Shown: positions 1,266-64,000 of the stretch, piece after piece
Layout of the letters: each line of letters opens with the position of its first letter
Position numbering within the stretch: the stretch's first letter is position 1
From: Christensenella sp. UBA1750
Lineage (GTDB): Bacteria; Bacillota; Clostridia; Christensenellales; UBA1750
Length of the DNA stretch: 64,000 bases
Direction: 5' to 3'
Assembly (NCBI GenBank): GCA_002315655.1
Contig: DCHO01000044.1
Span: 25,948-89,947 of the forward strand
The notes under the pieces: generated by a model
Databases searched by the model: none
What the model was told of the DNA's origin: nothing
Seen by the model: the letters and a program-made list of their open reading frames with translations, nothing else
Made by a program: the position numbers and the translations under genes

Positions 1266-1311
1266 ACCATTCCCCCTTTTGACAATAGATATGGAATCAG
1301 GAGGCTTTAAT

Positions 1312-4949: not shown

Positions 4950-5095
4950 CTTTTAACCCTCCAAGCCCTTAAAAAGTGCGCTTTATGCTTTTCAAACGGC
5001 GCAAAAAGCTGTATAATGGTTCCGATTGAGACCATGCGCGGGGAACCCCTCACGCATCCATATCTATGATAACACATTACAGGAGGAAAAGTAAA

Positions 5096-10429: not shown

Positions 10430-10446
10430 TCCGAAAAACGATATTT

Positions 10447-10480
10447 TGCGCACTGAAAGGAATTTTCTTTTCAGTGCGCA
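10447..10480 (+). promoter_or_regulatory. Perfect 12-bp hairpin between acpP and rnc (terminator-like but lacking a T tail)
   Basis: TGCGCACTGAAA (10447-10458) pairs with TTTCAGTGCGCA (10469-10480). No U-run follows. Confidence 0.5.
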
Positions 10481-10533
10481 GGTATAAATGAGTCAGTTTG
10501 CTGAAAAATTGGCTGATTTATGGAAAGTGAAAG

Positions 10534-11196: not shown

Positions 11197-11215
11197 GATT
11201 TGGAGAGTTGGTAAG

Positions 11216-14797: not shown

Positions 14798-15716
14798 AGT
14801 GAACGAGAAAAAGGAAAAGAAAGGCCTGTTTGCCCGACTGAAGGAGGGCATGAGCAAGACCAGAGAATCTATCACCCACGCCATTGACACATTGGCGGGC
14901 GTGTATAAGGAGCTGGACGACGATTTCTATGACGAGCTGGAAATGATCCTGATTTCCGCAGATGTGGGCGTTGCCACCACCGAAAAGATCATAGATAAGC
15001 TCAAAGAGGAAGTTCGCGCCCGCAGAGAGGGCAATCCCGAGAACGTCAAGGGGATTTTGAAGGAGATTGTGGCCGACATGATGCAGGCCGAGCCCTTCAA
15101 TCCCCAAAGCCCCACTGTGGTGCTGGTTGTCGGCGTAAACGGCGTTGGCAAAACCACTACCATCGGAAAACTGGGCTGCTACTATAAGGAGCAGGGCAAA
15201 AACGTGATTCTTGCCGCCGCCGATACCTTCCGCGCTGCCGCAACCGAGCAATTAACCATCTGGGCACAGCGGGCGGGTGTGCCCATCGTGGCGCACGGCG
15301 AGGGCGCAGACCCCGCCGCCGTGGTGTTCGACGCTGTGGCCTCCGCCAAGGCGAAAAAGGCTGATCTGCTCATCATTGATACCGCAGGGCGTCTGCACAA
15401 CAAGACGCATTTGATGGAGGAGCTGAAAAAGATCCGCCGCGTCATTGACCGCGACTTCCCCGAGGCCACCGTGCGCGTCTTTATGGTGTTGGACGGCACC
15501 ACGGGACAGAACGGCGTTTCCCAGGCGCGGGTCTTCCGGGATGCCGTGGATGTGGACGGCATCATCTTGACCAAGCTGGACGGCACCGCCAAGGGCGGCG
15601 TGGTCATCTCCATTCAGGAGGAACTGAAACTGCCCGTGTACTTCATCGGTGTGGGCGAACAGAAGGAAGATTTGCAGGTGTTTGATCCAAAGGACTATGC
15701 CGAAGCGATTTTCTGA
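14790..15716 (+). CDS. ftsY: Signal recognition particle receptor FtsY
   Basis: It has the NG domain motifs GVNGVGKTTTIGKL, DTAGRL and TKLDGTAKGG. It overlaps smc by 8 nt. Confidence 0.95.
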   Translation: MSEVNEKKEKKGLFARLKEGMSKTRESITHAIDTLAGVYKELDDDFYDELEMILISADVGVATTEKIIDKLKEEVRARREGNPENVKGILKEIVADMMQAEPFNPQSPTVVLVVGVNGVGKTTTIGKLGCYYKEQGKNVILAAADTFRAAATEQLTIWAQRAGVPIVAHGEGADPAAVVFDAVASAKAKKADLLIIDTAGRLHNKTHLMEELKKIRRVIDRDFPEATVRVFMVLDGTTGQNGVSQARVFRDAVDVDGIILTKLDGTAKGGVVISIQEELKLPVYFIGVGEQKEDLQVFDPKDYAEAIF

Positions 15717-15734: not shown

Positions 15735-15974
15735 ATGGAATACACAAACGTGATTTCTGCGGAAGAATACATGAATTTGCGCAAAAGCGTCGGCTGGACG
15801 GAGTTTCCCTTGGAACAGGCGCAACAGGGTATTGACCACACCTATTTCCTCGTTTGCGCCCGCGAGGGCGGCAGGGTGGTCGGCTGCGTCCGGCTTTGCG
15901 GAGCGTCCGAACTATTACGCCGGGGCGGGCATGGAGATCAAATTCATCGGAGAATAGGAAGGAACTTCCCATGA
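15735..15974 (+). pseudogene. GNAT acetyltransferase remnant (internal deletion/frameshift)
   Basis: The N-terminal ~55 aa (MEYTNVISAEEYMNLRKSVGWTEF...VVGCVRL) look like a small GNAT. The acetyl-CoA-binding core is missing. A GNAT-like C-terminal tail (FAERPNYYAGAGMEIKF) appears only in another frame, stopping at 15955-15957. Confidence 0.5.
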
Positions 15975-20278: not shown

Positions 20279-20506
20279 ATGACGGAACTGGTTAAGTACA
20301 TTGCACAGTCCCTCGTCGATCATCCCGAAGAAGTCACCGTGACCGAGGTGCAGGGTGAGCAGGCGCTCATTCTGGAGCTTCGCGTTGCGCCCGACGATAT
20401 GGGAAAGGTCATCGGCAAGCAGGGACGCATCGCCAAGGCGATCCGCTCCGTGGTGAAGGCCGCAAGCCTCAAATCCGGGCAGACCGTGATGGTTGAAATC
20501 GTGTAA
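20279..20506 (+). CDS. khpA: KH-domain RNA-binding protein KhpA (YlqC)
   Basis: It is 75 aa with the KH GxxG motif VIGKQGRIAKAIRSV. It lies between rpsP and rimM. Confidence 0.9.
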   Translation: MTELVKYIAQSLVDHPEEVTVTEVQGEQALILELRVAPDDMGKVIGKQGRIAKAIRSVVKAASLKSGQTVMVEIV

Positions 20507-20513
20507 ATCAGCA

Positions 20514-20549
20514 AAAAAGGAGCATTCTGAAAGACGGATGCTCCTTTTT
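20514..20549 (+). terminator. Rho-independent terminator/attenuator after khpA
   Basis: AAAAAGGAGCAT pairs with ATGCTCCTTTTT in a 12-bp stem, and the T5 run forms part of the right arm. Confidence 0.7.
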
Positions 20550-20565
20550 CACAAAGGATTTTTGT

Positions 20566-21087
20566 ATGAAAAAGTATTTGATGATCGGGCAGATCGTAAA
20601 ACCCCAGGGCGTGCGCGGCGAAGTGAAGGTTGCTCCCGCAACCGACGACCCCGAGCGCTTCTGCGAGCTTCCCCACGTTTATCTGGATGAAAAGGGCGAA
20701 AAGCAGTTGAAGGTTCTCTCCGGCAGAGTCCGCGAAGGCTATGCGTTCCTCACCTTGGAGGGCATTTCCGACCGCGATCAGGCCGAAGGGCTGCGCAATG
20801 TCTTTCTCTATATCGACCGTGAGAATGCCGTAAAATTGCCTGAGGGCAGATATTACATTTCCGACCTCATCGGCATGGATGTGAAGGACGAAGCGGGCAA
20901 CGCCTTGGGCAAGCTTACCGATGTGTTTCAGGCCGGCGGCAACGATGTGTATGAGGTACGCGGGAATCGCGTGTTCCGCTTCCCGGCGTTGAAGCGTGCC
21001 CTTGTGTCTGTCGATGTGGAAAATGCCGTGATGGTGCTTGATGCCTCCGAGCTTTCCCGCATTGCGGTGTATGACGATGAAGATTAA
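20566..21087 (+). CDS. rimM: 16S rRNA processing protein RimM
   Basis: It has the N-terminal motif IGQIVKPQGVRGEVKV and a PRC barrel-like C-terminus. Confidence 0.9.
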   Translation: MKKYLMIGQIVKPQGVRGEVKVAPATDDPERFCELPHVYLDEKGEKQLKVLSGRVREGYAFLTLEGISDRDQAEGLRNVFLYIDRENAVKLPEGRYYISDLIGMDVKDEAGNALGKLTDVFQAGGNDVYEVRGNRVFRFPALKRALVSVDVENAVMVLDASELSRIAVYDDED

Positions 21088-21883
21088 GATTCTGACGCTG
21101 TTTCCCGATATGTTCCTGCCGGTGCTGGGCGCTTCCATCACAGGCCGCGCCATCGAGCGGGGGATTTTGTCCGTAGAGCCCATCAACATCCGGGATTACA
21201 CGAAAAACAAGCACAAGCGCTGCGACGATTATCCCTTCGGCGGCGGCGCGGGGCTGGTGATGACCCCGCAGCCCCTGTTTGACTGCATCCGCGCTGCAAA
21301 GGAAAATTTCCCGGCTAAGGTGCTGTTCATGTCCCCCAAAGGCGCAACGCTGACCCAGGAAAAGGCAAAGGAACTGGCACAGGAGGAAAACCTCATTTTC
21401 CTCTGCGGGCATTATGAGGGCATCGACCAGCGGGTCATTGACACGTTTGTGGATGAGGAAATCTCCATCGGGGATTATGTGCTGACCGGCGGCGAGCTGC
21501 CCGCCATGGTGGTCATTGACTGCTTATCCCGGCACATTCCGGGGGTGCTGGGCAGTGGGGAATCCGCCGCAGAGGAGAGCTTTTCCGATGGGCTGCTGGA
21601 ATATCCGCAGTACACCCGCCCGGCGGAATATGAAGGCTTGCCTGTGCCGGAGGTACTGCTGTCCGGGCACGATGCCAACATCCTGAAATGGCGCAGAGAG
21701 CAGGCTTTGGATGTGACGCGGGAGCGCCGCCCGGAGCTGCTGCAATCCGCCCCGCTGACGCTTTCCGATAAGGTCTACCTGGGTTGGGAAAAAGCCCCGG
21801 AAAAGCGCAAACGCCGGAAGAAAAAGCCGGTTTCTGCGGAACCCGGCCAGATACCCGATGAGCTTGCGGAAAAAGAACCATAA
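21071..21883 (+). CDS. trmD: tRNA (guanine37-N1)-methyltransferase TrmD with a basic C-terminal extension
   Basis: It has the motifs (MT)MKIKILTLFPDMF, YPFGGGAGLVM and GHYEGIDQRV. The start could be ATG 21071 or 21077. The C-terminus carries an extra KRKRRKKKP-containing tail. Confidence 0.9.
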   Translation: MTMKIKILTLFPDMFLPVLGASITGRAIERGILSVEPINIRDYTKNKHKRCDDYPFGGGAGLVMTPQPLFDCIRAAKENFPAKVLFMSPKGATLTQEKAKELAQEENLIFLCGHYEGIDQRVIDTFVDEEISIGDYVLTGGELPAMVVIDCLSRHIPGVLGSGESAAEESFSDGLLEYPQYTRPAEYEGLPVPEVLLSGHDANILKWRREQALDVTRERRPELLQSAPLTLSDKVYLGWEKAPEKRKRRKKKPVSAEPGQIPDELAEKEP

Positions 21884-22869: not shown

Positions 22870-23736
22870 TTGGGCGCAGTGAGAACAAAAAGGAACACCA
22901 AGGATACCGTGTTTTCCAGCCTGTTTGGCAGACCGGAATACCAACTGCAGCTCTATCAGACGCTGCACCCGGAGGACACCGCCGTAGATGTGTCCATGCT
23001 CACCGATGTGACCATCCGCAATGTGCTGACGGACAACATCTACAATGATCTGGGCTTCATGGTGCGCAACCGGCTGATGATCCTTGTGGAAGCGCAGAGC
23101 ACATGGTCGGAAAACATCATTATCCGGGCGTTTATGTATCTGGCGCAGAGCTACCATGAGCTGTTCGAGAGCCGGATGGAGAGTTTATACACTACAAGAA
23201 AGATTGAACTGCCGGAGCCGGAGTTGTATGTGATCTACACGGGCGAACGCAGGGAGAAGCCGGATAGCATCACCCTGTCAGGCAGCTTCTTCGGCGGGAA
23301 AAAGACCGCGTTGGAAGTCACGGTGAAGGTGCTCTACGGAGAGGACAGGCAGAGCATCATCGGGCAGTATATTCGTTTCAGCAAGGTGTTTGACGAGCAG
23401 ACCAAGGCTTTCGGTCTGACAGAGGAAGCCATCAGGAGAACGCTTGCCATTTGTAGAGATGAAAACGTATTGTCCGCGTATCTCAAGGAGCACGAAAAGG
23501 AGGCCGTTACCATTATGATGACATTGTTTGACGAGGAATATATACAGAAAGCCTATGGTGCGGAAAAGTTCGCAGAAGGGGAAGCTAAAGGAGAAGCAAG
23601 AGGGGAAGCCAAAGGAGGAAATACACGGGACAGACTTCATGTGCGAAACCTGCGTGCAAAGCATTACTTGGATGAACAGATTGCCGATATTCTTGACATG
23701 AGCCTTGATGAAGTGAAAGCGATTCCGAAGGATTGA
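22870..23736 (+). CDS. Rpn-family recombination-promoting nuclease / PD-(D/E)xK putative transposase
   Basis: It has a TTG start after a GGAGG RBS. The N-terminus KDTVFSSLFGRPEYQLQLYQTLHPED and the nuclease core D-x12-ILVEAQS (cf. the YhgA/Rpn IEHQS motif) are present. It has a Glu/Lys-rich repeat (EGEAKGEARGEAKG) and a C-terminal helical tail. Confidence 0.65.
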   Translation: MGAVRTKRNTKDTVFSSLFGRPEYQLQLYQTLHPEDTAVDVSMLTDVTIRNVLTDNIYNDLGFMVRNRLMILVEAQSTWSENIIIRAFMYLAQSYHELFESRMESLYTTRKIELPEPELYVIYTGERREKPDSITLSGSFFGGKKTALEVTVKVLYGEDRQSIIGQYIRFSKVFDEQTKAFGLTEEAIRRTLAICRDENVLSAYLKEHEKEAVTIMMTLFDEEYIQKAYGAEKFAEGEAKGEARGEAKGGNTRDRLHVRNLRAKHYLDEQIADILDMSLDEVKAIPKD

Positions 23737-27119: not shown

Positions 27120-27488
27120 ATGATCGGAAACAAGAAGGGCAACATCGGCGAGGAGACCGCCGCAAAATACCTGATGAGCAAGGGCTACACCCATCTGCAA
27201 TCGAATCTGAAGGTAGGCCATGACGAGATCGACCTGCTGATGCAGGACGGGCGCACTTACGTTTTCGTGGAGGTCAAACTGCGGGCGGCAGGAGGCGGCG
27301 CGGCGGCGGTGGACAAGCGCAAGCAGGCGCGAATCTCCAAGGCGGCTATTACCTTCCTCTATGAAAACGGCTTGCTTGAACAGCCCGCACGGTTTGACGT
27401 GGTGGAGATCGCCTTCAAGGATGTGGGCATGGACATCACCCATTACGAAAACGCTTTCCCCGTGATCCGGGGCAGGTTCTTCTTTTGA
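27120..27488 (+). CDS. yraN: YraN family (UPF0102) endonuclease-like protein
   Basis: The sequence GEETAAKYLMSKGYTHL...HDEIDLLMQDGRTYVFVEVKLR is present, and it follows rnhB as in many Firmicutes. Confidence 0.85.
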   Translation: MIGNKKGNIGEETAAKYLMSKGYTHLQSNLKVGHDEIDLLMQDGRTYVFVEVKLRAAGGGAAAVDKRKQARISKAAITFLYENGLLEQPARFDVVEIAFKDVGMDITHYENAFPVIRGRFFF

Positions 27489-27502
27489 TAAACGGAGAGG
27501 TT

Positions 27503-30500
27503 ATGAAGAAAAAACTATTGGTTCTGCTTCTGACAGTGCTGCTCACACTGTCCTGTGTGCCGGTGCTTGCCGACACAGGTGAAAATCTCATCCAAAACGG
27601 GGATTTCTCGGAGCTCAACGAAAGCGGTCTGCCGATTGGCTGGACGTATGACGCATGGGAGACGGATGAGAGCGTTTCGACCTTCTGGACGGAGGATAAG
27701 GACGAGGACTACTGCGTCCGGCTGGAAAACTTCGATTACAATGATGCGCGGCTGATTCAGGAAGTGAAGGTGAAGGGCAACACGCTCTACCACATTTCCG
27801 CAAAGGTGAAGGCGCAGGGCTGCGACCCGGAGGCCGTTGCCGCGAATTTATCGGTGCTTGATACCTTCGTCATTTCCGGCGACTGGGTGGACACGGACGG
27901 ACAGTGGGAGACCGTTGACCTCTACGGCAAGACCACGCTTTTGCAGGGCACAATCACCGTTGCGCTGCGGCTGGGCTATTACGGGGACGAAAACTTAGGT
28001 TCAGCATGGTTTGACGATGTGGTAGTGGAGCAGGTGGATGCCGCTCCCGCTGGGTATGAGATCAACACCTTCAAGGTGGAAAAGGCACAGGCCGACACTT
28101 CCACCGAGGACGGCGAGGGCGCGGACTGGATTCCCACACAGATTTTCCTCTCCTGCCTGTTTGTGCTGGTGATGATCTATCTGCTGCTGCGGGCAAGGGA
28201 CGTAAAGGCCGACAATAAAACCATCGAAATCGCCCTTGTTTGGGTGCTGGCGGCGGCGTTTGTTCTGCGGCTCATTCTGGCTGTCAAAAATCCCGGGTAT
28301 TCTGTGGACATCGGGTGCTTTACGGGCTGGGGACAGATGGTGATGCAGTACGGCTGTGCGGATTTCTACGAGCAGGGCTTTTGCGACTATCCGCCGGGCT
28401 ATCTCTATGTGCTGGCGGGGCAGGCGTGGCTTTCCGATCTGCTGAATATCCCCACGGGCAGCGGCGCCTATGGGCTGCTGATTAAGACCGTTCCCATGCT
28501 CTGCGACCTTGGCACGGCGTATCTGCTCTATGCCATTGCAAAGAAGCTGGACAGGCCGGTTTACGGCTTTATTGCCGCGGCGGCCTATGCCTTTGCGCCC
28601 GCGGTGCTCATGGACAGTGCCATGTGGGGGCAGATGGACAGCGTGCTTGTGCTGCTCATGCTGCTGGTGATTCAGGCGTTCCTGGACAAAAAGACATTGA
28701 AGGCCGCGATTCTCTACGGCATTGCCGTGACCGTGAAGCCTCAGGCACTCATGCTGGGCACCGTCATGCTCTGCGGCTATGTGCTGGAAATCATCGAAGA
28801 CCCGAAGCAGGGAATGAAGAAGCTGCTGGCGGGCGTCGGCGTGTGCATCGCGGTGATGGCGGTCATCTGTGTGCCGTTCCTTGTGCATCAGCCCGTCACT
28901 TATATCCTTGAAAAATACATTTCCACCGTGACCTCCTACCCCTATGCCACGGTCAATGCCATGAACCTTTTCTACCTGCTGGGCGGCAACTGGGCTTCGC
29001 AGGAGAACGTGATTTTAGGGCTGTCCTTTGCAAATTGGGGCACCGTCGGCATGGCGTTAAGTGTTATTATCGGCTGTGTGCTGTGCTTTGTTTCCCGCGA
29101 AAAGCGTGCCATTCCGCTGACAAGTGCGCTGACGCTTGCGGGGGTGTTCTTCTTAGGCTGCCGGATGCACGAACGGTATATGTTCCCCATCCTCATGCTG
29201 CTGCTCCTTGCCGCCATTCTCTATCACGATAAGCGGCTGTGGGCGATCTTCGGGGGCTATTCCGTCACCAACGCGGTCAATATCTATGTGGTGCTGCAAA
29301 ACGAGCATATTTTGGATGCGAACCGCTGGGTCGGCGTTGCCGTGGGGCTTCTCAATCTGCTGCTGCTCCTGTTCCTCCTGGAAACCGCCATCGAATTGTG
29401 CTTGAGAAAGGAAGCCGTGCTGCTGGGCGATAAGCACACAAAACCCCTGCGGCGGCAAATTTTACACGCAAAGCTGCCGGATGCCTTTTCCGCAGGAGAC
29501 CGCCGCGCCTTCCGTATGACGAAGATAGATTGGATTCTCATGGCGGCACTGACGGTCGTGTATGCCGTGTTTGCGTTCTTCATGCTGGGCGAGACCACTG
29601 CACCGCAGACCTATTGGGAAGGAAATGCGGGGGATGAAGTCGTTTTCGATTTAGGCACGGAAAAGGGAATCGAGCGGTTCCAGTATTACGGAGAGATCGC
29701 CTACGGTGATTTTGCCGTGAGCTTCTCTACTGACGGCGAAACCTACACCGACGAATACGCCGAAACCATGAGCATTTACGATATGTTCAAGTGGGAGGGC
29801 GAGGACTATGTGGGCGTGACAGCGCGTTACGCCAAGGTCTCCGTTACCTCCGGCACGGTGCGGCTGATGGAGGTGGCCTTCCGGGACGACAGGGACAACC
29901 TTCTGCCCATCGAGGAATGTTCCGCTTCAGAGGTCTGTGACGAGCAGACCATCGTGCCGGTTGAAAGCAGCTACCTAAATTCCATGTACTTTGACGAGAG
30001 CTACCATGGCAGAACCGCCTATGAGCAGATGCACAACATGGAGTGGTATGAAAACACCCATCCGCCGCTCGGGAAGATGCTCATGTCGTGGTCTATCGCC
30101 ATCTTCGGCATGACGGCCTTTGCCTGGCGCTTTGCGGGCACGCTGGCAGGCGTTCTCATGGTGCCGGTGATGTATCTTCTGTGCAAGCTGCTGTTCAGAA
30201 AGGAATGGATCGCCTTCTTGGGCGCATTCCTGCTGACCTTCGACTTTATGCACTTGTCGCAGACCCGTCTGGCGACCATCGACAGCTATCCCGTGCTGTT
30301 CATTTTGCTGGAATTTTATTTCATGCTGCGTTACGCCTACCACAGCTTCTATCACGAAAAGCTCTGGAAAACCTTTGTGCCGCTTTTCTTCTCCGGCATC
30401 TTCATGGGGCTTGGCATGGCGGCCAAGTGGATCGGCATTTACGCGGGCTTCGGGCTGGCAGTGCTGTTCTTCTGCATCCTGTCGCAGCGTGTTTCGGAAT

Positions 30501-31246
30501 ATGTCCGGGCGAGAAAAGCCATCAAAAGCGAAACGCTTTCCAATGAAAAGCAAGCGCAGCTGGAAAGCATCGTGAAGGGCTTCCCGAAAAAACTCACATT
30601 CACCCTGCTTGCCTGTGTTGCGTTCTTTATCGTCATTCCCCTTTGCATCTATGTGGGGTCGTATTATCAGTTCCTGCGCATTGACGCGCCGAACCACGGA
30701 CTTAGGGAAGTCTGGAACTACCAGACCCACATGCTCAACTACCACAAGGGCGTGTTTTCCAGCCATCCCTTCGCTTCTTCCTGGTACGAATGGCCGCTGG
30801 ACATCCGCAACATCTGGTACTATGACGGCGATGTCGGGGAAGGTATGGTCTCCACCATCACCTCCATGGGCAACCCGCTCATCTGGTGGCTGGGGCTTGC
30901 GGCGTTCCTTTGGGTGCTTGTGCGCTTCCTGCGCGGCTACGGCAGACAGGACAAGCGGTACGTCTTCCTGCTCATCGGCTTTGCCACGAACTACCTGCCG
31001 TGGGTGCTGGTGCCCCGTATCACCTTTGTCTACCACTATTTCGCCTCCGTACCCTTCCTCATCCTGTGCATCTGCATGGCGGCGGAGGACTGCTACGACA
31101 AAAAGTGGTGGAAGCCGGTTTGCATCGGCTTCATGGCACTTGTGTTTGTGCTGTTTGTGCTGTATTACCCGGTGCTGACCGGCCTTGCCGTGCCCGAAAA
31201 TTACGCCAAGCTGTTGGAGCTGATGCCCGCTTGGACATTTGTGTGA
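27503..31246 (+). CDS. Giant fused membrane glycosyltransferase: signal peptide + CBM-like jelly-roll + GT-C module 1 + discoidin-like domain + PMT/GT39-like GT-C module 2
   Basis: I place the start at ATG 27503 (MKKKLLVLLL) after a GGAGAGG RBS. Around 20 or more predicted TM helices fall in two blocks. The first-loop motifs are SVDIGCFTGWGQ...DYPPGY for module 1 and NSMYFDESYHGRTAYE...THPPLGK (PMT-type DE motif) for module 2. No stop codon separates the two modules. Confidence 0.7.
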   Translation: MKKKLLVLLLTVLLTLSCVPVLADTGENLIQNGDFSELNESGLPIGWTYDAWETDESVSTFWTEDKDEDYCVRLENFDYNDARLIQEVKVKGNTLYHISAKVKAQGCDPEAVAANLSVLDTFVISGDWVDTDGQWETVDLYGKTTLLQGTITVALRLGYYGDENLGSAWFDDVVVEQVDAAPAGYEINTFKVEKAQADTSTEDGEGADWIPTQIFLSCLFVLVMIYLLLRARDVKADNKTIEIALVWVLAAAFVLRLILAVKNPGYSVDIGCFTGWGQMVMQYGCADFYEQGFCDYPPGYLYVLAGQAWLSDLLNIPTGSGAYGLLIKTVPMLCDLGTAYLLYAIAKKLDRPVYGFIAAAAYAFAPAVLMDSAMWGQMDSVLVLLMLLVIQAFLDKKTLKAAILYGIAVTVKPQALMLGTVMLCGYVLEIIEDPKQGMKKLLAGVGVCIAVMAVICVPFLVHQPVTYILEKYISTVTSYPYATVNAMNLFYLLGGNWASQENVILGLSFANWGTVGMALSVIIGCVLCFVSREKRAIPLTSALTLAGVFFLGCRMHERYMFPILMLLLLAAILYHDKRLWAIFGGYSVTNAVNIYVVLQNEHILDANRWVGVAVGLLNLLLLLFLLETAIELCLRKEAVLLGDKHTKPLRRQILHAKLPDAFSAGDRRAFRMTKIDWILMAALTVVYAVFAFFMLGETTAPQTYWEGNAGDEVVFDLGTEKGIERFQYYGEIAYGDFAVSFSTDGETYTDEYAETMSIYDMFKWEGEDYVGVTARYAKVSVTSGTVRLMEVAFRDDRDNLLPIEECSASEVCDEQTIVPVESSYLNSMYFDESYHGRTAYEQMHNMEWYENTHPPLGKMLMSWSIAIFGMTAFAWRFAGTLAGVLMVPVMYLLCKLLFRKEWIAFLGAFLLTFDFMHLSQTRLATIDSYPVLFILLEFYFMLRYAYHSFYHEKLWKTFVPLFFSGIFMGLGMAAKWIGIYAGFGLAVLFFCILSQRVSEYVRARKAIKSETLSNEKQAQLESIVKGFPKKLTFTLLACVAFFIVIPLCIYVGSYYQFLRIDAPNHGLREVWNYQTHMLNYHKGVFSSHPFASSWYEWPLDIRNIWYYDGDVGEGMVSTITSMGNPLIWWLGLAAFLWVLVRFLRGYGRQDKRYVFLLIGFATNYLPWVLVPRITFVYHYFASVPFLILCICMAAEDCYDKKWWKPVCIGFMALVFVLFVLYYPVLTGLAVPENYAKLLELMPAWTFV

Positions 31247-57069: not shown

Positions 57070-57114
57070 AAAAAGCTCTGTATGGAAAAATGCGTTCCAT
57101 ACAGAGCTTTTTTT
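57070..57114. terminator. Bidirectional terminator between the GH127-like gene (+) and the methyltransferase-like operon (-)
   Basis: AAAAAGCTCTGTATGGAA pairs with TTCCATACAGAGCTTTTT in a perfect 18-bp stem. Confidence 0.85.
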
Positions 57115-58180
57115 AATCATGGGTGAGCTTCGCCACCTGCTTTTCGATGGCTTGCGCTTCTTCCTTGGTTTCGGTGGTGGTGATGAGATACAGCCCCTTG
57201 GAGGAGAGGTTTTCCATGATGGGCTGAATCTGCTCCGGCTCCACAAGGATGATGAGGCTCTTTCCCGCGGCCTGTATCTTTTTGAGATACGGGAAGAACT
57301 CGGTGCAAGGCGGCTGACCCGCCACCTGCGTCCACTGAATTGCCCGCAGCTCCTTGATGGAGAGCAGATCGTCCAAATGCCGCGTCTGCTCAAAGCCGTC
57401 AAAGTGGTAAAGCGGATAATCTAAGAATTTGCACTGGGTCTGCAATTCGGGCAGTACAAATTCCTTGAACAGCGGGTTGGAGATCATCACGGACATATCG
57501 CACTGCATCTGCGCGTGGAAGCCTGGCGCCCAAGTGGAGAGCCAATCCACCACGCAGCCGCCCTCGTTCGTGTCCTTTACGATGGAATAGACGTTTTTCA
57601 TGACCTTTTCGTAGGCTGCTTCGATCTTCTGCAGAGCATCGGAGACCCCTTCCGGGTCTTCCAGCATAGCCATCATCAGGTTTTCGCTGCCCATCAGGTG
57701 TGCAAGGGCATCGGCGTTGCCGGTGGAGTCGGGCATGGAGATGAAGTAATCGCCCTTGCTATCCTCCGCATAAGCCTTGGCCAGCTCCAAAGTCTTCTGA
57801 TACAGGAAGCTGTTTTCGTCAAAGGTCAGATCGTTCGGGTCTTCTAAGGAAGGATGGAACCACACCGAGTCCCCGAAGTAATATTTGGCGCCCTTGAAGA
57901 AGCCCGCGTGCCCGCCTGCGCCCAAGTCCACGAAGATGGCGGGGAAGGAATCGCCGCCGTAGTAGGTGTGTTCCATGCGCTCCCGATTGCGTTTGATGAC
58001 CAGATTCGGGTCTGTCCAATACTGAATGCGCTCCTCGTCCGTGCCGGGAACAAGACGCACGGTGGAGAGTGCCTTGTGGTCAAAGGCCTTGACGGACACG
58101 CAGCAGCGGTCAACGAGCTCCTGATTCCAGAAGGCGGTGAGCCTCTTTTTTGAGGCCTCCCAGTTTTCCTTGTAAAGCAT
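57113..58180 (-). CDS. Uncharacterised 355-aa protein, paralog A (possibly URO-D/MtaA-like TIM-barrel fold, no HxC zinc motif)
   Basis: It is the last gene of the minus-strand operon. It is ~68% identical (243/355 by hand alignment) to the adjacent paralog B. It has YHFDG where MtaA-type enzymes have HxCG. Confidence 0.6.
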   Translation of the reverse strand: MLYKENWEASKKRLTAFWNQELVDRCCVSVKAFDHKALSTVRLVPGTDEERIQYWTDPNLVIKRNRERMEHTYYGGDSFPAIFVDLGAGGHAGFFKGAKYYFGDSVWFHPSLEDPNDLTFDENSFLYQKTLELAKAYAEDSKGDYFISMPDSTGNADALAHLMGSENLMMAMLEDPEGVSDALQKIEAAYEKVMKNVYSIVKDTNEGGCVVDWLSTWAPGFHAQMQCDMSVMISNPLFKEFVLPELQTQCKFLDYPLYHFDGFEQTRHLDDLLSIKELRAIQWTQVAGQPPCTEFFPYLKKIQAAGKSLIILVEPEQIQPIMENLSSKGLYLITTTETKEEAQAIEKQVAKLTHD

Positions 58181-58210
58181 AACGGTTCCTCCTATATGAT
58201 GTTTATGATG

Positions 58211-59278
58211 TTATTCGTGGGTGAGCTTTGTCACCTGTTTTTCGATGAACTGCGCTTCCTCTTTGGTCTGCACCGTCGTTACGAGGAACAGCCCTTTGGA
58301 GGACAGGTTTTCCATAAGCGGCTCGATCTGCTCCGGGGTCACGACGATGACCAGGCTCTTGCCTGCCGCCTGTATTCTTTTCAGATACGGCAGATATTCC
58401 GTGCAGGGCGGCTGCCCCGCCACCTGTGTCCACTGGATCGCCCGCAGCTCCCTGACGGATAAAATGTCGTCCAAGTGCCGTGTCTGCTCGAAGCCGTCCA
58501 GATGATACATGGAATAGTCCAAAAACCGACTTTCGGTCTGTAATTCCGGCAGAGCAAATTCCTTAAACATGGGGTTGGAGATCATCACGGAAAGGTCGCA
58601 CTGCATGAGGGCGTGAAGCCCCGGCGCCCAGGTGGAGAGCCAGCCGACGCAACTCCCGCCGCGGTTTACGCCCTTTACGATGGCGTAAAGCTCGCTCATG
58701 ATGCGCTCGTAGGCATATTCCAGCTTGTTTAGTGCGTCTTTTACGCCCTCGGGGTCTTCGATCATGGAAATCAGCAGGTTTTCCGGCCCCATGAGGTTTT
58801 GCAGCGCGTCGAGATTTCCCGAAAGGTCGGGCATCCCGATCATGTAGTCCCCGCGGCTGTCCTCCGCAAAGGCCTTGGCCAATTCTATCGTTTTGTGATA
58901 GATAAAGCTCTGCTCGTCAAATTCCAATTCGGCGGGGTCTTCCAAGGTCGGATAAATCCACAGCGTATCGCCAAAGGTATATTTCGCGTTTTTGAAGAAG
59001 GCCGAATGGGCGCTGACCCCCATATACATGGCAATGCCGGGATAGCTTTCGCCACCGTAATAGGTGTGCTCCATGCGGGCGCGGTTGCGCGCAATCACCA
59101 CATCGGGGTCTGTCCAGTAGCGGAGACATTCCTCCGGCGTGCCGAGCTTTTTGAGCGTGCCCAGCGGCGCGGCATTGCCCAGCCCCATAACGGACACGCA
59201 GCTGCGATCAACAAGCTCCTGATTCCAGAACGCGGCAAGCCGTTTTTCGCAGGCCTCCCAGTTTTCCTTATAGCGCAT
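58211..59278 (-). CDS. Uncharacterised 355-aa protein, paralog B
   Basis: It is a tandem duplicate of 57113-58180 with identical length and a 30-bp spacer. It has YHLDG at the equivalent position. Confidence 0.6.
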   Translation of the reverse strand: MRYKENWEACEKRLAAFWNQELVDRSCVSVMGLGNAAPLGTLKKLGTPEECLRYWTDPDVVIARNRARMEHTYYGGESYPGIAMYMGVSAHSAFFKNAKYTFGDTLWIYPTLEDPAELEFDEQSFIYHKTIELAKAFAEDSRGDYMIGMPDLSGNLDALQNLMGPENLLISMIEDPEGVKDALNKLEYAYERIMSELYAIVKGVNRGGSCVGWLSTWAPGLHALMQCDLSVMISNPMFKEFALPELQTESRFLDYSMYHLDGFEQTRHLDDILSVRELRAIQWTQVAGQPPCTEYLPYLKRIQAAGKSLVIVVTPEQIEPLMENLSSKGLFLVTTVQTKEEAQFIEKQVTKLTHE

Positions 59279-59302
59279 GATCTGTCCTCCCCAACGTGAT
59301 TC

Positions 59303-60655
59303 CTATACCCGTTTTGCCTCGTCCATGGCGATGCGCACCCATTCCTTTGCGTTGTCGGCAGAATAGGCCAGCGTGCGAATGTCGCGGTTCAGCACCTCAA
59401 CGGGGCAGCCCAGCTTGCCTGTGTAGGCAAAGGTGTCGTGGATTTTTTCGCGGATGGCTTCCCTGTCGATGTGCGGCACGGCGATCTCCGCCGCGCTCAT
59501 CTTCCAGCAATAGACATAATCCTTTCCCAGCTTGTCCGCCATGATGCGTGTGTCCGCCCACGGGGACACCGTGACCTTGCGCAGACGCGGTATCTTTTCT
59601 TTGAGAATGTCGATCCAGTTGTCCAGCGGCTCGCAGCAGCCGTAAACATTCAGCCCGAATTTTTCCAGAATGGGAAGCTGGAAAGGCAACACGAACTCCG
59701 CAAAGGCCTCGGGCGAAATGACGCCGCTTTCCTGACTTTCGCAATAGCCCCACATATCCATAGGGCGCACATGATCAGGGTCAAAGCCCGGCGCGGGCAA
59801 TTCGTCGCACCAGCCGTAGCCGCCGGTGCCCATGAACTCGCCGCCGTTGTTGCAGGAGAGCAGCCTGTTGTCTTCCAATAAGGAAAGTTTGTGCAGGGCA
59901 TTGTCCCGCAAAAAGCCCATTAAGGCCTTCACCTCGTCGGGATAATCGTATAGGTCATATAGGAAATTTTCATAGCCGCGCAGGAAAATGAACTCCGAGG
60001 TCAGGCCGAGAGAGAACCACCACGAATTGTCCGTAACCACAGGAAGGATGCCGTCAAACACATCATGGGCGACAGTGAGCAGCTTTTCGGAGGCCTCCTT
60101 ATCGTAATAAAGGTCTGTAAAATGGAGCTTGGGCAGGTCTTCATCGTAGTCCTTTATCGCGGGGTCAATGTGATACGCGCCGTAGTTTTCTCCGCCGGTG
60201 TGGCGGGTCTTTATACCCATGTCCGTGAAGTGCACAACAGACTGCACGGAAAATTCTTTGCGGCACACGCGGTCGTCCCCGATTTCCTCCTGCCAGTAGA
60301 TTTCCTTCCGCAGACGGTATTCCCAGATTCGCGCCAGAGGGGATGTGCATTTTAAGCAGGTGTGGGGCATGATCTCATACCACGCAAGCTCCGGGTCGAT
60401 GAACACCAGCGGGCGGGTCTGCTTTAAGGAAAGATGGTCTTTCCAGAGCTGTTTTCGCTCCTGCTGAATGGGTAAATCGGCCAAACCTGCCACGCGGGAG
60501 GCAAGCTTACGCAAAATGCCCTTTTCCTCCTGCGAAACGGAAAAGGAGGGGAGGCTTGCCATGAGCCCGTTCATCTCGCACAGCCACGAAAGCGCGCCGG
60601 AAGCCGCAAGGCCGATGCCGAGCTGTTCCTGTTTGAGTCGTTCTCTTTCCTCCAT
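59303..60655 (-). CDS. Uncharacterised 450-aa protein (possibly URO-D-like fold; YGCCE motif)
   Basis: It is an in-operon ORF with coding-like composition. The C-terminal half (GLNVYGCCEPLDNW...VTVSPWAD) resembles the C-terminal strands of URO-D/MtaA-family barrels. The assignment is tentative. Confidence 0.55.
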   Translation of the reverse strand: MEERERLKQEQLGIGLAASGALSWLCEMNGLMASLPSFSVSQEEKGILRKLASRVAGLADLPIQQERKQLWKDHLSLKQTRPLVFIDPELAWYEIMPHTCLKCTSPLARIWEYRLRKEIYWQEEIGDDRVCRKEFSVQSVVHFTDMGIKTRHTGGENYGAYHIDPAIKDYDEDLPKLHFTDLYYDKEASEKLLTVAHDVFDGILPVVTDNSWWFSLGLTSEFIFLRGYENFLYDLYDYPDEVKALMGFLRDNALHKLSLLEDNRLLSCNNGGEFMGTGGYGWCDELPAPGFDPDHVRPMDMWGYCESQESGVISPEAFAEFVLPFQLPILEKFGLNVYGCCEPLDNWIDILKEKIPRLRKVTVSPWADTRIMADKLGKDYVYCWKMSAAEIAVPHIDREAIREKIHDTFAYTGKLGCPVEVLNRDIRTLAYSADNAKEWVRIAMDEAKRV

Positions 60656-60664
60656 GCGTGCCTC

Positions 60665-62152
60665 CTATTCCTGCTCCGGGAAGAGCATATTGTCCATATA
60701 GCGTTCGTTGAACTTGGGATTGCCGCCCAAGGGAACATGAACGGCGTTCTTTGCGATTTCCCGCGCCCGCGCTGTGGCTTCCTTATGAAGAAGGAGCTGC
60801 GCCGCGCCGGAGAGGGCGGCATTGCCCAAGACGGTTGTGCAGGCAACCAGTTCCTCCGGCAGAAGGCCGATGGCGGCGGCGGAGCGGAGATTCAGATTGC
60901 TGCCGAAGCCCCCAGCCAGATCAAAGGAGGAAACGTCCTTCGGTTTGATGCCCGCCGAATCCAGCAGGGTTTCCAGCCCGGCGGCGATGGCGGCCTTGGC
61001 AAGCTGCACGGCGCGAACGTCCTTGGGAAACAGGGAAACCGCGCCGCCCAAGGGGAACTCGTCCTCCTCCATGGCTCCCGTTTCGTCGATTTCCTCCAAC
61101 GCCAGCCCCACCGCGATGGCGTCCAACAGGCCGCTGCCGCAGAGGGATTGGGCTTCCGTGTTGCCGATGACGGAAACGTGGGGCTTGCCGTTTACGATGC
61201 TGACTCCGTTGATCGCCCCGGTCACGCTGCCGCTGCCCATGGTGATGCCCGCGCCCTCAAAGGCGGGGCCGGCGGCGGTGGATGCAACATAGAGCCTGCC
61301 GTCCTTCCACAGCGCCATTTCGCCGTTGGTGCCGATGTCACACAGCGCGGCGGTTTCATTGCCCCGGCAAAGGTGGGAAACCAGAATGGCACAGGTGATG
61401 TCCGCACCCACAAAGGCGTGGGCGCAGGGCGGCAGATAGGAAGGAATCCCGAACAAGTCTATGGTTTCGTCAAAGAGACAGTCGGCTTCAAAGGGGGCGT
61501 GGGACAGTGCTTCCGGGTCGCGCCCGGTCAGCAGATAGAGCATGGTCGTGTTGCCCGTGACCACCATTTTTGTGACGGTATTTGCCGCAATTTCCGCTTT
61601 TTCACAGGCTTCCTGAAGCAGGGCTTCGATGGCGCCTGTCACCTGCTGCCTCAAAAGGTCGCGCTTGCCGCCCATGGATGCGCCGATGCGCCCCATCACG
61701 TCCGCCGCGACGCTGCCCTGCGGGTTCAGCATGGCGGCAGAGGCAAGTTCCGCGAAGGATTGAAGGTCGTAGAGCTTTAACGCCATGGTGGTGGTGCCGA
61801 TGTCCACCGCCGCGCCAATCTTCCCGGAGGAAATGCCGGAGCTCTGCACGGTTTCCGCCTGTCCGCTGCCGGTTTCGATCATCATGTCCTGCCTGTCCTC
61901 GGGCAGAATGACTTCGCAGTCCCCCGTGATTTCCGCCTGACAGGACAGGCGGCAGCCTGCCTTTTGCTCCAAAGCGTTGGGCGCGGAAACGCTGCCGGTG
62001 ATCTCCACCCGGCATTTGCCGCAGACCCCGCGCCCGCCGCAGGGATGAATGGTAGAAAGCCCGTTTTGCAAAAGAAGGTCAGACAGCTTCATCCGACCTT
62101 CAAACTTGATATTCTGTGTGATTTTTCCCTTGTGTACCTTCAAAATTGCCAT
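60665..62152 (-). CDS. RACo-type reductive activator of corrinoid proteins (N-terminal [2Fe-2S] ferredoxin + ASKHA/DUF4445 ATPase)
   Basis: It has the plant-type ferredoxin Cys pattern HPCGGRGVCGKCRV...CRLSC. It has the ASKHA phosphate-1 motif AAVDIGTTTMA. Its size of about 495 aa fits. Confidence 0.8.
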   Translation of the reverse strand: MAILKVHKGKITQNIKFEGRMKLSDLLLQNGLSTIHPCGGRGVCGKCRVEITGSVSAPNALEQKAGCRLSCQAEITGDCEVILPEDRQDMMIETGSGQAETVQSSGISSGKIGAAVDIGTTTMALKLYDLQSFAELASAAMLNPQGSVAADVMGRIGASMGGKRDLLRQQVTGAIEALLQEACEKAEIAANTVTKMVVTGNTTMLYLLTGRDPEALSHAPFEADCLFDETIDLFGIPSYLPPCAHAFVGADITCAILVSHLCRGNETAALCDIGTNGEMALWKDGRLYVASTAAGPAFEGAGITMGSGSVTGAINGVSIVNGKPHVSVIGNTEAQSLCGSGLLDAIAVGLALEEIDETGAMEEDEFPLGGAVSLFPKDVRAVQLAKAAIAAGLETLLDSAGIKPKDVSSFDLAGGFGSNLNLRSAAAIGLLPEELVACTTVLGNAALSGAAQLLLHKEATARAREIAKNAVHVPLGGNPKFNERYMDNMLFPEQE

Positions 62153-62156
62153 TTTG

Positions 62157-62702
62157 TCAGTCCTCGAACAGCAGCATTCCGAAATAGGTCACGGTGTTGG
62201 TTCCGTTGATGTATTTAAGCTCCGTGCTCTTGGTGGTGTTGTAAACGTCCACGCCGGAGCCTTCCAGAGAATAAATGATGTCGTTGGGATGGCGGCAGGG
62301 CAATTCGTCTCGCTTTGCGCACTTTTCGCACAGATGGCAGCCGCCGGAGCCCAAGAGAGAGGTTCTACCGGAAAAAAGCGGCAGCAGATTCTTTTTGATA
62401 TTCTGGCAGACCTGCGCGTGGGTTTTGGCGACCTCGCCCATGCCCTCAAAATCGAAGCTGTCCTCGATTTCGCCTACGGTCTGGAACCACAGCCCGTGGG
62501 GGAAGGAGCGCACCTTTTCCATCAATTCTTCAATTTCGCCGTCAAAGGGCGGGCACGTCCAGCATCTGTTATAATTGCCGCAACCGTTGTTTTCACAGAT
62601 TTTGCGGAATTCGGCGGAAAGCACAATGCTTTCCTGCTTAATTACCGTGGCTTTGGTCGCGCCGCAGGAAAGGGCGGCGGCGACGAGAGATTCATAGTCC
62701 AT
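62157..62702 (-). CDS. DUF2284 family metal-binding protein
   Basis: It has the motifs CGNYNRCWTCPP and GGCHLCEKC. The family is commonly found beside corrinoid methyltransferase genes. Confidence 0.7.
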   Translation of the reverse strand: MDYESLVAAALSCGATKATVIKQESIVLSAEFRKICENNGCGNYNRCWTCPPFDGEIEELMEKVRSFPHGLWFQTVGEIEDSFDFEGMGEVAKTHAQVCQNIKKNLLPLFSGRTSLLGSGGCHLCEKCAKRDELPCRHPNDIIYSLEGSGVDVYNTTKSTELKYINGTNTVTYFGMLLFED

Positions 62703-62705
62703 TTT

Positions 62706-63707
62706 TCAGCCCTCCCACTTTGCAAGGGTGTCAAAGAATGCGTGGATGTTTTCCCATTTGGCCTTCGGGGGAATGTCGCAGCCGGAGGAGGGCAGGAAGT
62801 TGCTCTCTTTGCCGCAATTTTCCATAAGCGAAACAACAGCCGCCTGCATGGATTCCACCGTGCCGCCGGCAAACTCGCCCGCCGGGTCAATGTTGCCCAT
62901 GCACAGGCAGTCCTTCGGCGCTTTGTCCAAAATTTCCCGCATATTCACGGCGTTTCCGAAATGGTACGCCGCCGCGCCCTGGGCAAAGATGCTGTCCGTT
63001 AAGTGAGGCACCGCGTTGCCGCAGTTGTGGTAGATGACGGAAAACTCTTCTTCCTGCGTGCTTTCAATGAGACGGGTGACGTAGGGCTTGGAGAACTCGT
63101 CAAAGAGCTCGGGGGAAAGCAGCCCCGCCAGCGGCTCCGCCAGCACCACGCCGTCCGCGCCGATTGCCTTGAAAGCATTGATATAATTGATGAGGAAGTC
63201 CGTGACCTTGGATAAGACTTTGTGAACCAGCTCCGGCTCATCGTAGCACTGATAAAGGATTTCGGTCACATCCAGCAACCGCCCCGCCAGCGAATAAGGG
63301 CCGATGACCCCGGCCAGAACAGGCCGGTCGGTGATGGTTTCCTTGGCCTTTCTGACGGCTTCCAAGCACAAGCCTGTGCGTCCTGCGCCCACTTCGGGGA
63401 GGACAAGCGCGTCGGCCTCGTCCTCATCGGAAACCAAAGTCCCGGTGATGGTGGGCACTTCGTTTTCCGCAAAGCGCACCGTTGCGCCGAAGGCCTCGGC
63501 TTCCACGGATAAGTCCATCAGCGTGACGGAGGCAAGAGAGGGCACTTCGTCGGCCACGATCTTCATCGCCTTGGCCTGATTGTCCGCAGAGGACACCAGC
63601 TCGTGGACGGAAATGCCCATTTTCTGCACAGCGGGGAAAGAGAGCAGGGGCAGAGCCTTCTTAACCGGCTTTGCGGCCTCTTCCCAGAGAAATGTCGAGA
63701 GATTCAT
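62706..63707 (-). CDS. MtaA/CmuA-family (uroporphyrinogen decarboxylase-like) methylcobamide methyltransferase
   Basis: It is 333 aa. It has the zinc motif VIYHNCGN (HxCG) plus the distal Cys in SSGCDIPP. The layout is typical of the URO-D family. Confidence 0.75.
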   Translation of the reverse strand: MNLSTFLWEEAAKPVKKALPLLSFPAVQKMGISVHELVSSADNQAKAMKIVADEVPSLASVTLMDLSVEAEAFGATVRFAENEVPTITGTLVSDEDEADALVLPEVGAGRTGLCLEAVRKAKETITDRPVLAGVIGPYSLAGRLLDVTEILYQCYDEPELVHKVLSKVTDFLINYINAFKAIGADGVVLAEPLAGLLSPELFDEFSKPYVTRLIESTQEEEFSVIYHNCGNAVPHLTDSIFAQGAAAYHFGNAVNMREILDKAPKDCLCMGNIDPAGEFAGGTVESMQAAVVSLMENCGKESNFLPSSGCDIPPKAKWENIHAFFDTLAKWEG

Positions 63708-63759
63708 AAAGGTCTGCCCCTTTTCATGGAGTATTTGTGTTCAGCGGAAGAACAGAACG

Positions 63760-63956
63760 GTGAAATAAATCCCAACGGGATTTGTGAAATACATTTCATT
63801 TGTGAAATAGGGCTGCGCCCTGTGAAATACGCTGTGGCGTGTGAAAGGAAAGTATCTTCACCGAATGCGAAGCATTCGATTTCACATTCCCATGGAATAT
63901 TTCACATTGACCGCCAAAGGCAGGTCAATATTTCACATCCCGCAGGGATATTTTAC
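63760..63956. repeat. Mirrored array of nine GTGAAATA / TATTTCAC octamers separated by short unique palindromes
   Basis: Forward copies start at 63760, 63784, 63802 and 63822, with a degenerate GTGAAAGG at 63841. Reverse copies lie at 63878-63885, 63898-63905 and 63929-63936, with a degenerate TATTTTAC at 63949-63956. The spacers contain hairpins: AAATCCC/GGGATTT, GGGC/GCCC, CGAATGC/GCATTCG, ATTCC/GGAAT, TTGACC/GGTCAA and ATCCC/GGGAT. Confidence 0.85.
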
Positions 63957-63960
63957 TGAT

Positions 63961-64000
63961 CTACTTGCAGAAGGCAGCGGCGGCGTCGGCAGCGGAGGCC
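63961..64000 (-). CDS. 3' end of an upstream minus-strand gene (partial)
   Basis: The reverse frame is open to the window edge and ends ...ASAADAAAAFCK with TAG (complement of 63961-63963). Its identity is unknown. Confidence 0.4.
   Translation of the reverse strand, partial: ASAADAAAAFCK

Follow-up and report, generated by a model that had tools for sequence, protein, structure and literature searches.

A corrinoid-protein-dependent methyl-transfer locus in Christensenella sp. UBA1750 with divergent URO-D-fold proteins that may act on methylated carbohydrates

An operon that encodes machinery for corrinoid-dependent methyl transfer raises the question of where its methyl groups come from, and in the locus described here that question falls on three proteins that match no named family. 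The locus lies at one end of a 64,000-nucleotide stretch of Christensenella sp. UBA1750, an uncultured gut bacterium of the Clostridia (GCA_002315655.1, contig DCHO01000044.1, positions 25,948 to 89,947 of the forward strand; hereafter the window). A preliminary description, made from the letters alone, had read it as a tightly packed, corrinoid-type methyl-transfer operon of six minus-strand genes. We give an even chance to the reading that the locus is a corrinoid protein (CP)-dependent methyl-transfer system in which a protein of 450 amino acids (aa) and two 355-aa paralogs, here called the cargo proteins, are substrate-specific methyl-donor:corrinoid methyltransferases, with methylated carbohydrates as their probable substrates.

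The six open reading frames (ORFs), all on the minus strand, were recovered from 63707 down to 57113. The gaps between them, computed from the ORF coordinates, are in transcription order 3, 4, 9, 24 and 30 bp, which reproduces the packing described earlier. The features of the locus, in the order of transcription, are:

63961..64000, minus strand: 3′ end of the CP gene, comprising the last 12 codons and the stop of a 209-aa protein whose remainder lies outside the window
63874..63958, minus strand (operon sense): copy of the Gut-1 RNA motif in the spacer between the CP and URO-D genes (RF01706, 56.2 bits)
63758..63833, plus strand (antisense to the operon): copy of the Gut-1 RNA motif (RF01706, 57.7 bits)
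62706..63707, minus strand: 333-aa zinc-type, MtaA/MtbA-like URO-D methyltransferase (Pfam URO-D, E 1.7e-52)
62157..62702, minus strand: 181-aa DUF2284 cysteine-rich predicted metal-binding protein (Pfam DUF2284, E 9e-44)
60665..62152, minus strand: 495-aa RACo-type ATP-dependent reductive activase (Pfam Fer2, Raco_middle and RACo_C_ter)
59303..60655, minus strand: 450-aa protein of a Pfam-less family with a predicted divergent URO-D fold (AlphaFold2, Foldseek, hhalign and homologue operons)
58211..59278, minus strand: 355-aa paralog a, of a Pfam-less family with a predicted MtaA/URO-D fold and HxD (YHLDG) in place of HxC
57113..58180, minus strand: 355-aa paralog b, of the same family as paralog a (AlphaFold2, Foldseek and hhalign)
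57070..57112, no strand assigned: bidirectional intrinsic-terminator-like hairpin between the operon and a convergent GH127 gene

The downstream hairpin has an 18-bp stem and a stability of -25.5 kcal/mol (z = -7.9 against shuffles), in agreement with the terminator that had been proposed there.

It had also been suggested that the gene truncated at the window edge (63961-64000) might supply a B12-binding protein. An identical 93-kb metagenome contig (JGI 3300001598; locus L001) bears the same genes and extends past that edge. On it, a 209-aa protein with Pfam B12-binding_2 and B12-binding domains is encoded directly upstream of the URO-D gene. This protein carries the signature GDLHDIG (that is, DxHxxG), SALL and MIGGAP, and its C-terminus, AASAADAAAAFCK followed by the stop, equals the translation of window positions 64000-63961. 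Moreover, a 416-aa PocR-sensor/AraC regulator is divergently transcribed from the CP gene. The corrinoid protein looked for nearby was thus found directly upstream. The six ORFs stand, but the operon unit most likely comprises seven genes once the CP gene is included.

The genes that follow the CP gene bear out the assignments first made for them. Aligned with MtaA of Methanosarcina mazei (PDB 4ay7, E 1e-18), the 333-aa protein has YHNCGN on LHICGN and SSGCDIPP on APGCGIAP, so that the HxC...C zinc motif of MtaA is kept, as the preliminary description had stated for this MtaA/CmuA-like enzyme; its NCBIfam MtaA/MtbA match is far under the cut-off (137 versus 244 bits). From these alignments we propose that it would act as a methyl-corrinoid:acceptor (thiol) methyltransferase. 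The RACo-type protein is recognised by Pfam at E 1.5e-58, and AcsV/RamA-type NCBIfam models match it below their curated cut-offs. With the Cys-rich DUF2284 protein likewise confirmed, and with a CP, a zinc-type URO-D enzyme and a RACo all present, the corrinoid-type character of the operon holds. In related cassettes the DUF2284 gene always lies between the methyltransferase or CP gene and the RACo gene; no paper on DUF2284 function was found in the literature searched.

Homologues of the 333-aa protein with 65-70% identity are very numerous. On the contigs examined they stand in a cassette of CP, URO-D (330 aa), DUF2284 and RACo genes without any 355 or 450 gene, and a divergent PocR-AraC or plain AraC regulator lies ahead of the CP gene. 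Since this cassette occurs without the 355/450 genes, the operon in the window can be described as a conserved core plus three cargo genes. Moreover, in the core cassette of another species (L093) a cobalamin riboswitch (6778-6952, plus strand, 97.8 bits) occupies the equivalent spacer after the CP gene, which independently ties the cassette to B12. Between this riboswitch and the URO-D gene, L093 has a DUF4430 gene and a 168-aa Pfam-less gene.

What, then, are the cargo proteins? The two 355-aa proteins are 69% identical to each other, and are thus paralogs as had been stated. Neither they nor the 450-aa protein gave a Pfam or NCBIfam match above threshold. The Pfam URO-D model (PF01208, gathering threshold 23.9 bits) reached 12.1 bits (E 0.099) on the 450-aa protein and had no match to the 355-aa proteins. 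Searches of PDB sequences with these proteins and with profiles of their families returned nothing meaningful; the sole low-E match, to a designed helical repeat protein over 47 residues only, was discounted, and a DUF2922 match (19.7 bits, below cut-off) and a beta-lactamase match were treated as noise.

AlphaFold2 models, with family alignments as input, gave a pLDDT of 94.4 and a pTM of 0.91 for the 355-aa protein (paralog b) and of 93.4 and 0.92 for the 450-aa protein. Foldseek searches against the PDB placed M. mazei MtaA (4ay8/4ay7) first for the 355-aa model (E 2.5e-8, TM 0.64-0.66, full length), followed by UroD, and for the 450-aa model each of the top 20 matches was a UroD (best E 2.4e-5, with a TM of 0.59 on the target). 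Profile alignments were made with hhalign against Pfam-type URO-D proteins from this locus and related loci. These gave a probability of 96.2% (E 2e-9) for the 355 family, with YHFDG on YHNCGN, and of 98.1% (E 1e-13) for the 450 family, with YGCCE on the same HxC site, precisely where the preliminary description had placed both motifs. By Foldseek and hhalign, both models are distorted (beta/alpha)8 barrels of the URO-D/MtaA type. Structure prediction brought up only MtaA/UroD barrels and no unrelated family, and the earlier judgement by eye that the proteins are not MttB-, MtaB- or MtbB-like is borne out.

At the metal site the 355 family reads YH(F/L)DG, in which His is kept, Cys is replaced by Asp and no distal Cys is aligned. 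The 450 family reads YGCCE, in which His is replaced by Gly and Cys is kept, with an invariant C340-C341-E342 at the place of the MtaA HxC. C417 of the 450 family was considered as the distal zinc Cys on account of its MtaA-like spacing and rejected: the hhalign alignment stops at this residue, short of the MtaA Cys, and C417 comes shortly before the last predicted strand (419-423) begins instead of following it. The invariant residues of both families follow the predicted barrel strands and are rich in Trp, Asp and Glu (alignments and AlphaFold2 strands); to judge from their sequence positions, they would lie on the usual active-site face of such a barrel. Both 355-aa paralogs retain every invariant column of the family alignment (A1). 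A relation of the 355-aa and 450-aa proteins as paralogs of each other was considered and set aside, as BLASTP found nothing and profile-profile comparison gave only 59% probability. On models and alignments together, these are two separate families, each related to URO-D. Both are predicted to adopt the URO-D/MtaA fold in a very divergent form, in which HxD or (G)CCE stands for the zinc motif. The putative conserved pocket would comprise D151, N155, D157, Q226, D228, H259, D261, Q282 and W283 in the 355 family and C340, C341, E342, R424 and D425 in the 450 family.

Neither family is small, and nearly all members of both are unnamed. Cultured carriers include Blautia producta DSM 2950, Blautia hominis KB1, Robinsoniella peoriensis and Faecalicatena contorta JCM 6483. 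A word-index search found 512 clusters at 90% identity for the 355 family and at least 829 for the 450 family; an exhaustive profile search extended the 355 family to 2665 clusters at 50% identity with E <= 0.001, of which 1717 have E <= 1e-10. One 355-family member (P0049, NCBI MBQ3125715.1) is labelled 'trimethylamine corrinoid protein 2', a name on which no paper was found in the literature searched. The label is a misnomer, because both members in the window show no B12-binding domain and are modelled as MtaA-like barrels. Another protein, P0452 (1025 aa), has a full 355-type domain (residues 5-358) fused to a C-terminal region of some 650 residues with weak matches to (alpha/alpha)6-barrel glycosidase-type families (GH47, GH76 and a C5-epimerase C-terminal domain).

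The link between cargo and corrinoid genes was examined in two surveys. The first covered 80 species-level genomic loci of the 355 family, with corrinoid genes sought within 10 kb by hidden Markov models (HMMs) on all six-frame ORFs; the second covered 28 metagenome loci, each of at least 6 kb and holding a 450-family gene. A 355-family gene shares one operon with a CP gene in L012 and L013, with full synteny including DUF2284 and RACo, and again in L059. In L026 the operon runs URO-D, CP, 355, the last two 57 bp apart, and a PocR-AraC gene and an orthologue of the 333-aa enzyme lie divergent to it. For the 450 family, a 61%-identical gene immediately precedes RACo and two URO-D genes in L087/L099; this cluster in L087 has no recognisable CP gene, and a 135-aa DUF3842 gene (L087:7458-7865, plus strand) lies immediately upstream of it. 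In L096/L097 a divergent 411-aa homologue of the 450-aa protein (hhalign 100%, E 2.5e-42) adjoins the AraC gene of the core cassette.

By HMM, a 450-family gene is followed by CP, DUF2284 and RACo genes in L109, L110 and L152, and no URO-D-type enzyme was detected in these three loci. In L109 (~10001-14883) the order, confirmed by Pfam, is 450-family gene, homocysteine S-methyltransferase (PF02574), CP, DUF2284 and RACo. By analogy, L109 would be a split counterpart of methionine synthase with the 450-family barrel as its methyl-donor module. No other single observation argues as strongly for the loading of a methyl group onto the corrinoid by the 450 family, and the arrangement also suggests a thiol-methylating role for the zinc-type URO-D enzyme in the window. 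A tetrapyrrole methylase gene is found near the L109-type operon.

Which donor would such a system use? Neighbours were counted as genes clustered within 7 kb of the 355-family gene at the 80 loci. AraC regulators were found at 22/80, ABC sugar permeases at 21/80, SBP_bac_1 binding proteins at 16/80 and YesM/YesN-type two-component systems at 15-16/80. Among carbohydrate enzymes, the glycoside hydrolase (GH) family GH3 was found at nine of the 80, the GH29 alpha-L-fucosidase at eight, the CE15 glucuronoyl esterase at six, GH31 at five, and GH42 and GH2 at four each. Altogether, 37/80 loci have sugar transporters or such carbohydrate enzymes within this distance. Several of the GH neighbours (GH29, GH31, GH3, GH42 and GH2) lie only 3-40 bp from the 355-family gene on the same strand. 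The CE15 genes lie 216-2439 bp downstream of 355-family genes, again on the same strand, in six loci of the Oscillospiraceae/Ruminococcaceae type (L043, L044, L045, L047, L049 and L051; for example L047:3626-4705 and 4929-6005). Most 450-family loci are likewise beside glycoside hydrolases, CE15 esterases and sugar transporters, and the two families stand beside glycosidases across Clostridia, Spirochaetes and others.

A recurrent trio, found in L038, L050, L072 and L082 (for example L082:10001-17846, Faecalicatena contorta JCM 6483), consists of a 355-family gene, a Pfam-type URO-D gene with HxC kept and the distal Cys lost, and a 420-aa 450-like gene. It is surrounded by genes for GH38, GH31, GH29, FucU, a FucO-like alcohol dehydrogenase and a lyxose-isomerase-like cupin; no CP gene was found within 10 kb at these four loci. 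GH29 enzymes act on fucosides, GH31 enzymes on alpha-xylosides or alpha-glucosides and CE15 enzymes on 4-O-methyl-glucuronoyl esters, and methyl-etherified sugars occur in these plant-wall contexts. The 355-family loci may target methylated sugars. The preliminary description had speculated on a methylated sugar from the flanking genes; support from sugar loci across the family is much stronger, while the substrate itself stays speculative. The most likely donor would be a sugar that carries an O-methyl group, or some other methyl group attached to carbohydrate, set free by the neighbouring glycan-degrading enzymes; this is the weakest step of the argument, and taken by itself we regard it as possible but doubtful.

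From the observed domain content, folds, motif substitutions and genomic linkages we infer the half-reactions, the acceptor and the substrate as follows. The CP would cycle between Co(I) and CH3-Co(III), with its cobalt as the methyl carrier. The 450-aa and 355-aa barrels would bind the methylated substrate, from which Co(I) of the CP would take the methyl group (the methyltransferase I, or MT-I, half-reaction), and the 450-aa protein and the two 355-aa paralogs may differ in substrate specificity. The zinc-type URO-D enzyme would then hand the methyl group from CH3-Co(III) to a thiol, possibly homocysteine (the MT-II half-reaction). RACo, using ATP and an electron, would restore Co(II) to Co(I), perhaps with DUF2284 as redox partner, and the divergent PocR-AraC regulator would control expression. 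Of the preliminary description, the corrinoid system has held; the suggested MT-I role of the cargo proteins stays conditional.

Several observations weigh against this scheme. In neither family is linkage to corrinoid machinery the rule: CP genes were found within 10 kb at 5/80 of the 355-family loci, RACo at 3/80 and DUF2284 at 2/80, and the 450-family loci gave 2/28, 3/28 and 2/28, respectively, so that more than 90% of the former and about 90% of the latter are without it. Close homologues (51-73% identical) stand outside corrinoid cassettes, namely with AraC and an oligopeptide/oligosaccharide-type ABC transporter, alone, or behind a LacI regulator. One lies in a sugar-acid cluster of a Caldilineales metagenome-assembled genome, with an FGGY kinase, KDPG aldolase, a DHDPS-like protein and a 2-hydroxyacid dehydrogenase. 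The canonical HxC...C zinc triad is missing from all three cargo proteins. The 253-bp spacer with its Gut-1 motifs means that the CP gene may or may not be co-transcribed with the rest. No pterin-binding methyltransferase or Wood-Ljungdahl gene is present in the 64-kb window, which leaves the acceptor to inference, and corrinoid-dependent demethylation of sugar methyl ethers has no precedent in the literature searched.

The rarity of corrinoid neighbours, together with the existence of the core cassette by itself, favours an alternative in which the 355 and 450 families are corrinoid-independent carbohydrate enzymes on a URO-D-like barrel (a glycosidase, esterase, decarboxylase or isomerase, for example). 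They would then only prepare or consume the sugar substrate, or would merely be co-located with an independent corrinoid cassette. UroD, which dominates the fold matches, is a cofactor-free decarboxylase of the same fold; Trp, Asp and Glu abound in the conserved pockets, much as they do in sites that bind sugars; and the loss of the zinc motif fits as well. However, the operonic link to CP or RACo recurs on several unrelated contigs and in both families, and in L109-type operons the 450-family protein is the sole candidate for the methyl-donor half-reaction. Moreover, Pfam-type URO-D genes adjoin 17/80 of the 355-family loci and 14/28 of the 450-family loci, and bona fide MtaA-like, HxC-bearing URO-D proteins also occur in sugar loci without a CP gene. 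The absence of a neighbouring CP gene is therefore not specific evidence against methyl transfer, and the negative linkage is softened. We consider this alternative rather unlikely.

A second alternative keeps the corrinoid system and the MT-I role of the cargo proteins and changes the donor to a non-carbohydrate one, such as methoxyaromatics from lignin or flavonoids, methanol from pectin, or the methyl-sulfur or methyl-selenium compounds that have been suggested for type 1 mlp gene clusters. The CE15 neighbours of the 355 family act at lignin-carbohydrate junctions, and the PocR sensor domain is linked with small hydrophobic ligands. Characterised URO-D-type corrinoid methyltransferases all act on aryl methyl ethers, methylthiols or coenzyme M (PMC10418091). 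Moreover, the locus resembles the type 1 mlp clusters in having MtaA-like enzyme(s), a CP and an activase and no tetrahydrofolate methyltransferase; in these clusters methyl flow toward a thiol, a selenol or methionine has been proposed (PMC10418091, Kountz & Balskus). However, what defines a type 1 mlp cluster is the presence of two or three genuine URO-D Mlps (Mlp2 and Mlp3; PMC10418091), whereas the operon in the window has one Pfam-level URO-D and otherwise two Pfam-less families. It also differs in its altered metal sites, its carbohydrate context and its DUF2284 component, which is not mentioned in that paper. Furthermore, exo-glycosidases, FucU and sugar ABC transporters, and not proteins for aromatic compounds, are encoded in translational adjacency to the 355-family genes, and 450-family genes lie behind LacI regulators, in sugar-acid or kinase clusters. 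A non-carbohydrate donor is thus, in our judgement, unlikely.

A reversal of roles, in which the 333-aa enzyme would load the corrinoid from a methylthiol or methanol and the barrels would methylate sugar hydroxyls or other acceptors in a B12-dependent O-methylation, is very improbable: URO-D-type enzymes can carry out either half-reaction, MtsA both, and sequence fixes no direction, but the genomic context of glycoside hydrolases, uptake transporters and kinases is catabolic, and the partner in L109 is a homocysteine S-methyltransferase domain, the classical methyl acceptor module.

With the cargo proteins taken as MT-I candidates, the locus can be set beside known systems. O-demethylases (Acetobacterium dehalogenans OdmABCD/Vdm, Desulfitobacterium hafniense and archaeal MtoABCD) share its four-component logic, in which a URO-D-superfamily MT-I, a small DxHxxG CP, a second methyltransferase and a RACo/RamA activase are encoded together (PMC10418091, PMC8630106). 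However, they use a pterin-binding MT-II that methylates tetrahydrofolate, of which the window has none; the candidate MT-I here is without a Pfam URO-D match and has an HxD or CCE metal site; and the context is carbohydrate, not aromatic. The methanol/methylamine:coenzyme M systems of methanogens, with MtaA/MtbA, MtaC and RamA, are alike in that the 333-aa enzyme is closest to MtaA, with its HxC...C zinc site, and in that a CP and an activase are likewise present. They differ in that the 333-aa enzyme falls far under the NCBIfam MtaA/MtbA cut-offs, that no MtaB/MttB/MtbB/MtmB-type MT-I is found here, and that the host is a bacterium with no known coenzyme M. Indeed, the cargo proteins matched none of the recognised MT-I families (MtaB, the MttB superfamily, MtbB, MtmB and Pfam-level URO-D O-demethylases).

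MetH combines homocysteine-binding, pterin-binding, B12-binding and reactivation modules. In the putative split analogue of L109, with its homocysteine methyltransferase, CP and activase, the 450-family barrel stands for the pterin-binding domain, and reactivation would fall to RACo/DUF2284 rather than to an S-adenosylmethionine-binding domain; in the window, the zinc-type URO-D enzyme would replace the homocysteine domain. In the literature searched, the sole sugar O-demethylase to turn up was the cytochrome P450 6-O-methyl-galactose demethylase of marine bacteria, which is encoded in glycan-utilisation loci, depends on oxygen and releases formaldehyde (PMC6292453). Its fold is unrelated, and the system proposed here would, unlike it, be anaerobic and conserve the methyl group.

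The repeat array that had been noted upstream of the URO-D gene is real and consists of two inverted copies of Gut-1. Both are full-length matches to RF01706 (model positions 1-77 of 77; Rfam gathering score 50 bits), on opposite strands, and they were the sole Rfam matches in a covariance-model scan of the 64-kb window. A triple repeat GTGAAAT...GTGAAAT...GTGAAAT occurs three times in the spacer against zero expected, and each copy forms three hairpins with GUGAAAU between them. As the motif is present on both strands, it may act either as an RNA or, at the level of DNA, as a repeat or operator. Gut-1 was absent from the 15 related loci in which it was looked for and is therefore not a general feature of these operons. 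It was described as an orphan motif known solely from human-gut metagenomes, and its authors judged it to be non-cis-regulatory (PMC2864571).

Elsewhere in the window, the neighbouring genes include GH127, a MatE transporter, DUF5107 and a major facilitator superfamily (MFS) transporter, with GH43 and GH2 further off; the remainder is housekeeping. Of the glycan-active flank described before (GH127-like, MFS and DUF5107-like), GH127 is indeed adjacent, but a MatE and a sigma factor gene come next, and MFS and DUF5107 are further away. A 1253-aa ORF (27485-31246, plus strand) matches PMT, PMT_2 and PMT_4TMC (dolichyl-phosphate-mannose protein mannosyltransferase) in its C-terminal third, and its N-terminal ~800 residues are without a Pfam match. 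Amid the housekeeping genes, five long candidate ORFs of 756, 417, 314, 289 and 288 aa also have no Pfam match at E <= 1e-5; they lie at 15854-18124 (plus), 195-1448 (minus), 4943-5887 (minus), 20320-21189 (minus) and 22870-23736 (plus), respectively.

What would the locus mean for its hosts? Plant cell walls and red algae commonly contain sugars with methyl ether groups: xylan has 4-O-methyl-glucuronate, rhamnogalacturonan II has 2-O-methyl-fucose and 2-O-methyl-xylose, and porphyran has 6-O-methyl-galactose. On the handling of such sugars by strict anaerobes of guts and sediments, nothing was found in the literature searched. In its fullest form, our proposal identifies the 355 and 450 families with the so far missing O-demethylases by which anaerobes would treat carbohydrates. 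As corrinoid MT-I enzymes they would pass the methyl group of plant or algal sugars, with 2-O-methyl-fucose, 2-O-methyl-xylose, 4-O-methyl-glucuronate and 6-O-methyl-galactose as candidate donors, via the CP and the zinc thiol methyltransferase to homocysteine or another acceptor. Taken as a whole, this joint proposal is rather unlikely. If it is true, gut Clostridia would in this way open methylated sugars to fermentation and gain the methyl groups for themselves. The locus offers a concrete, testable candidate for the anaerobic removal of sugar methyl groups. Compared with known corrinoid systems, the two Pfam-less barrel families with altered metal sites, the DUF2284 component and the carbohydrate context set the locus apart. 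Whatever the substrate, there stand a conserved cassette of CP, URO-D, DUF2284 and RACo genes with exchangeable cargo genes, a split-MetH-like operon of 450-family, homocysteine methyltransferase, CP, DUF2284 and RACo genes, and a predicted fold and working hypothesis for thousands of 'hypothetical proteins'.

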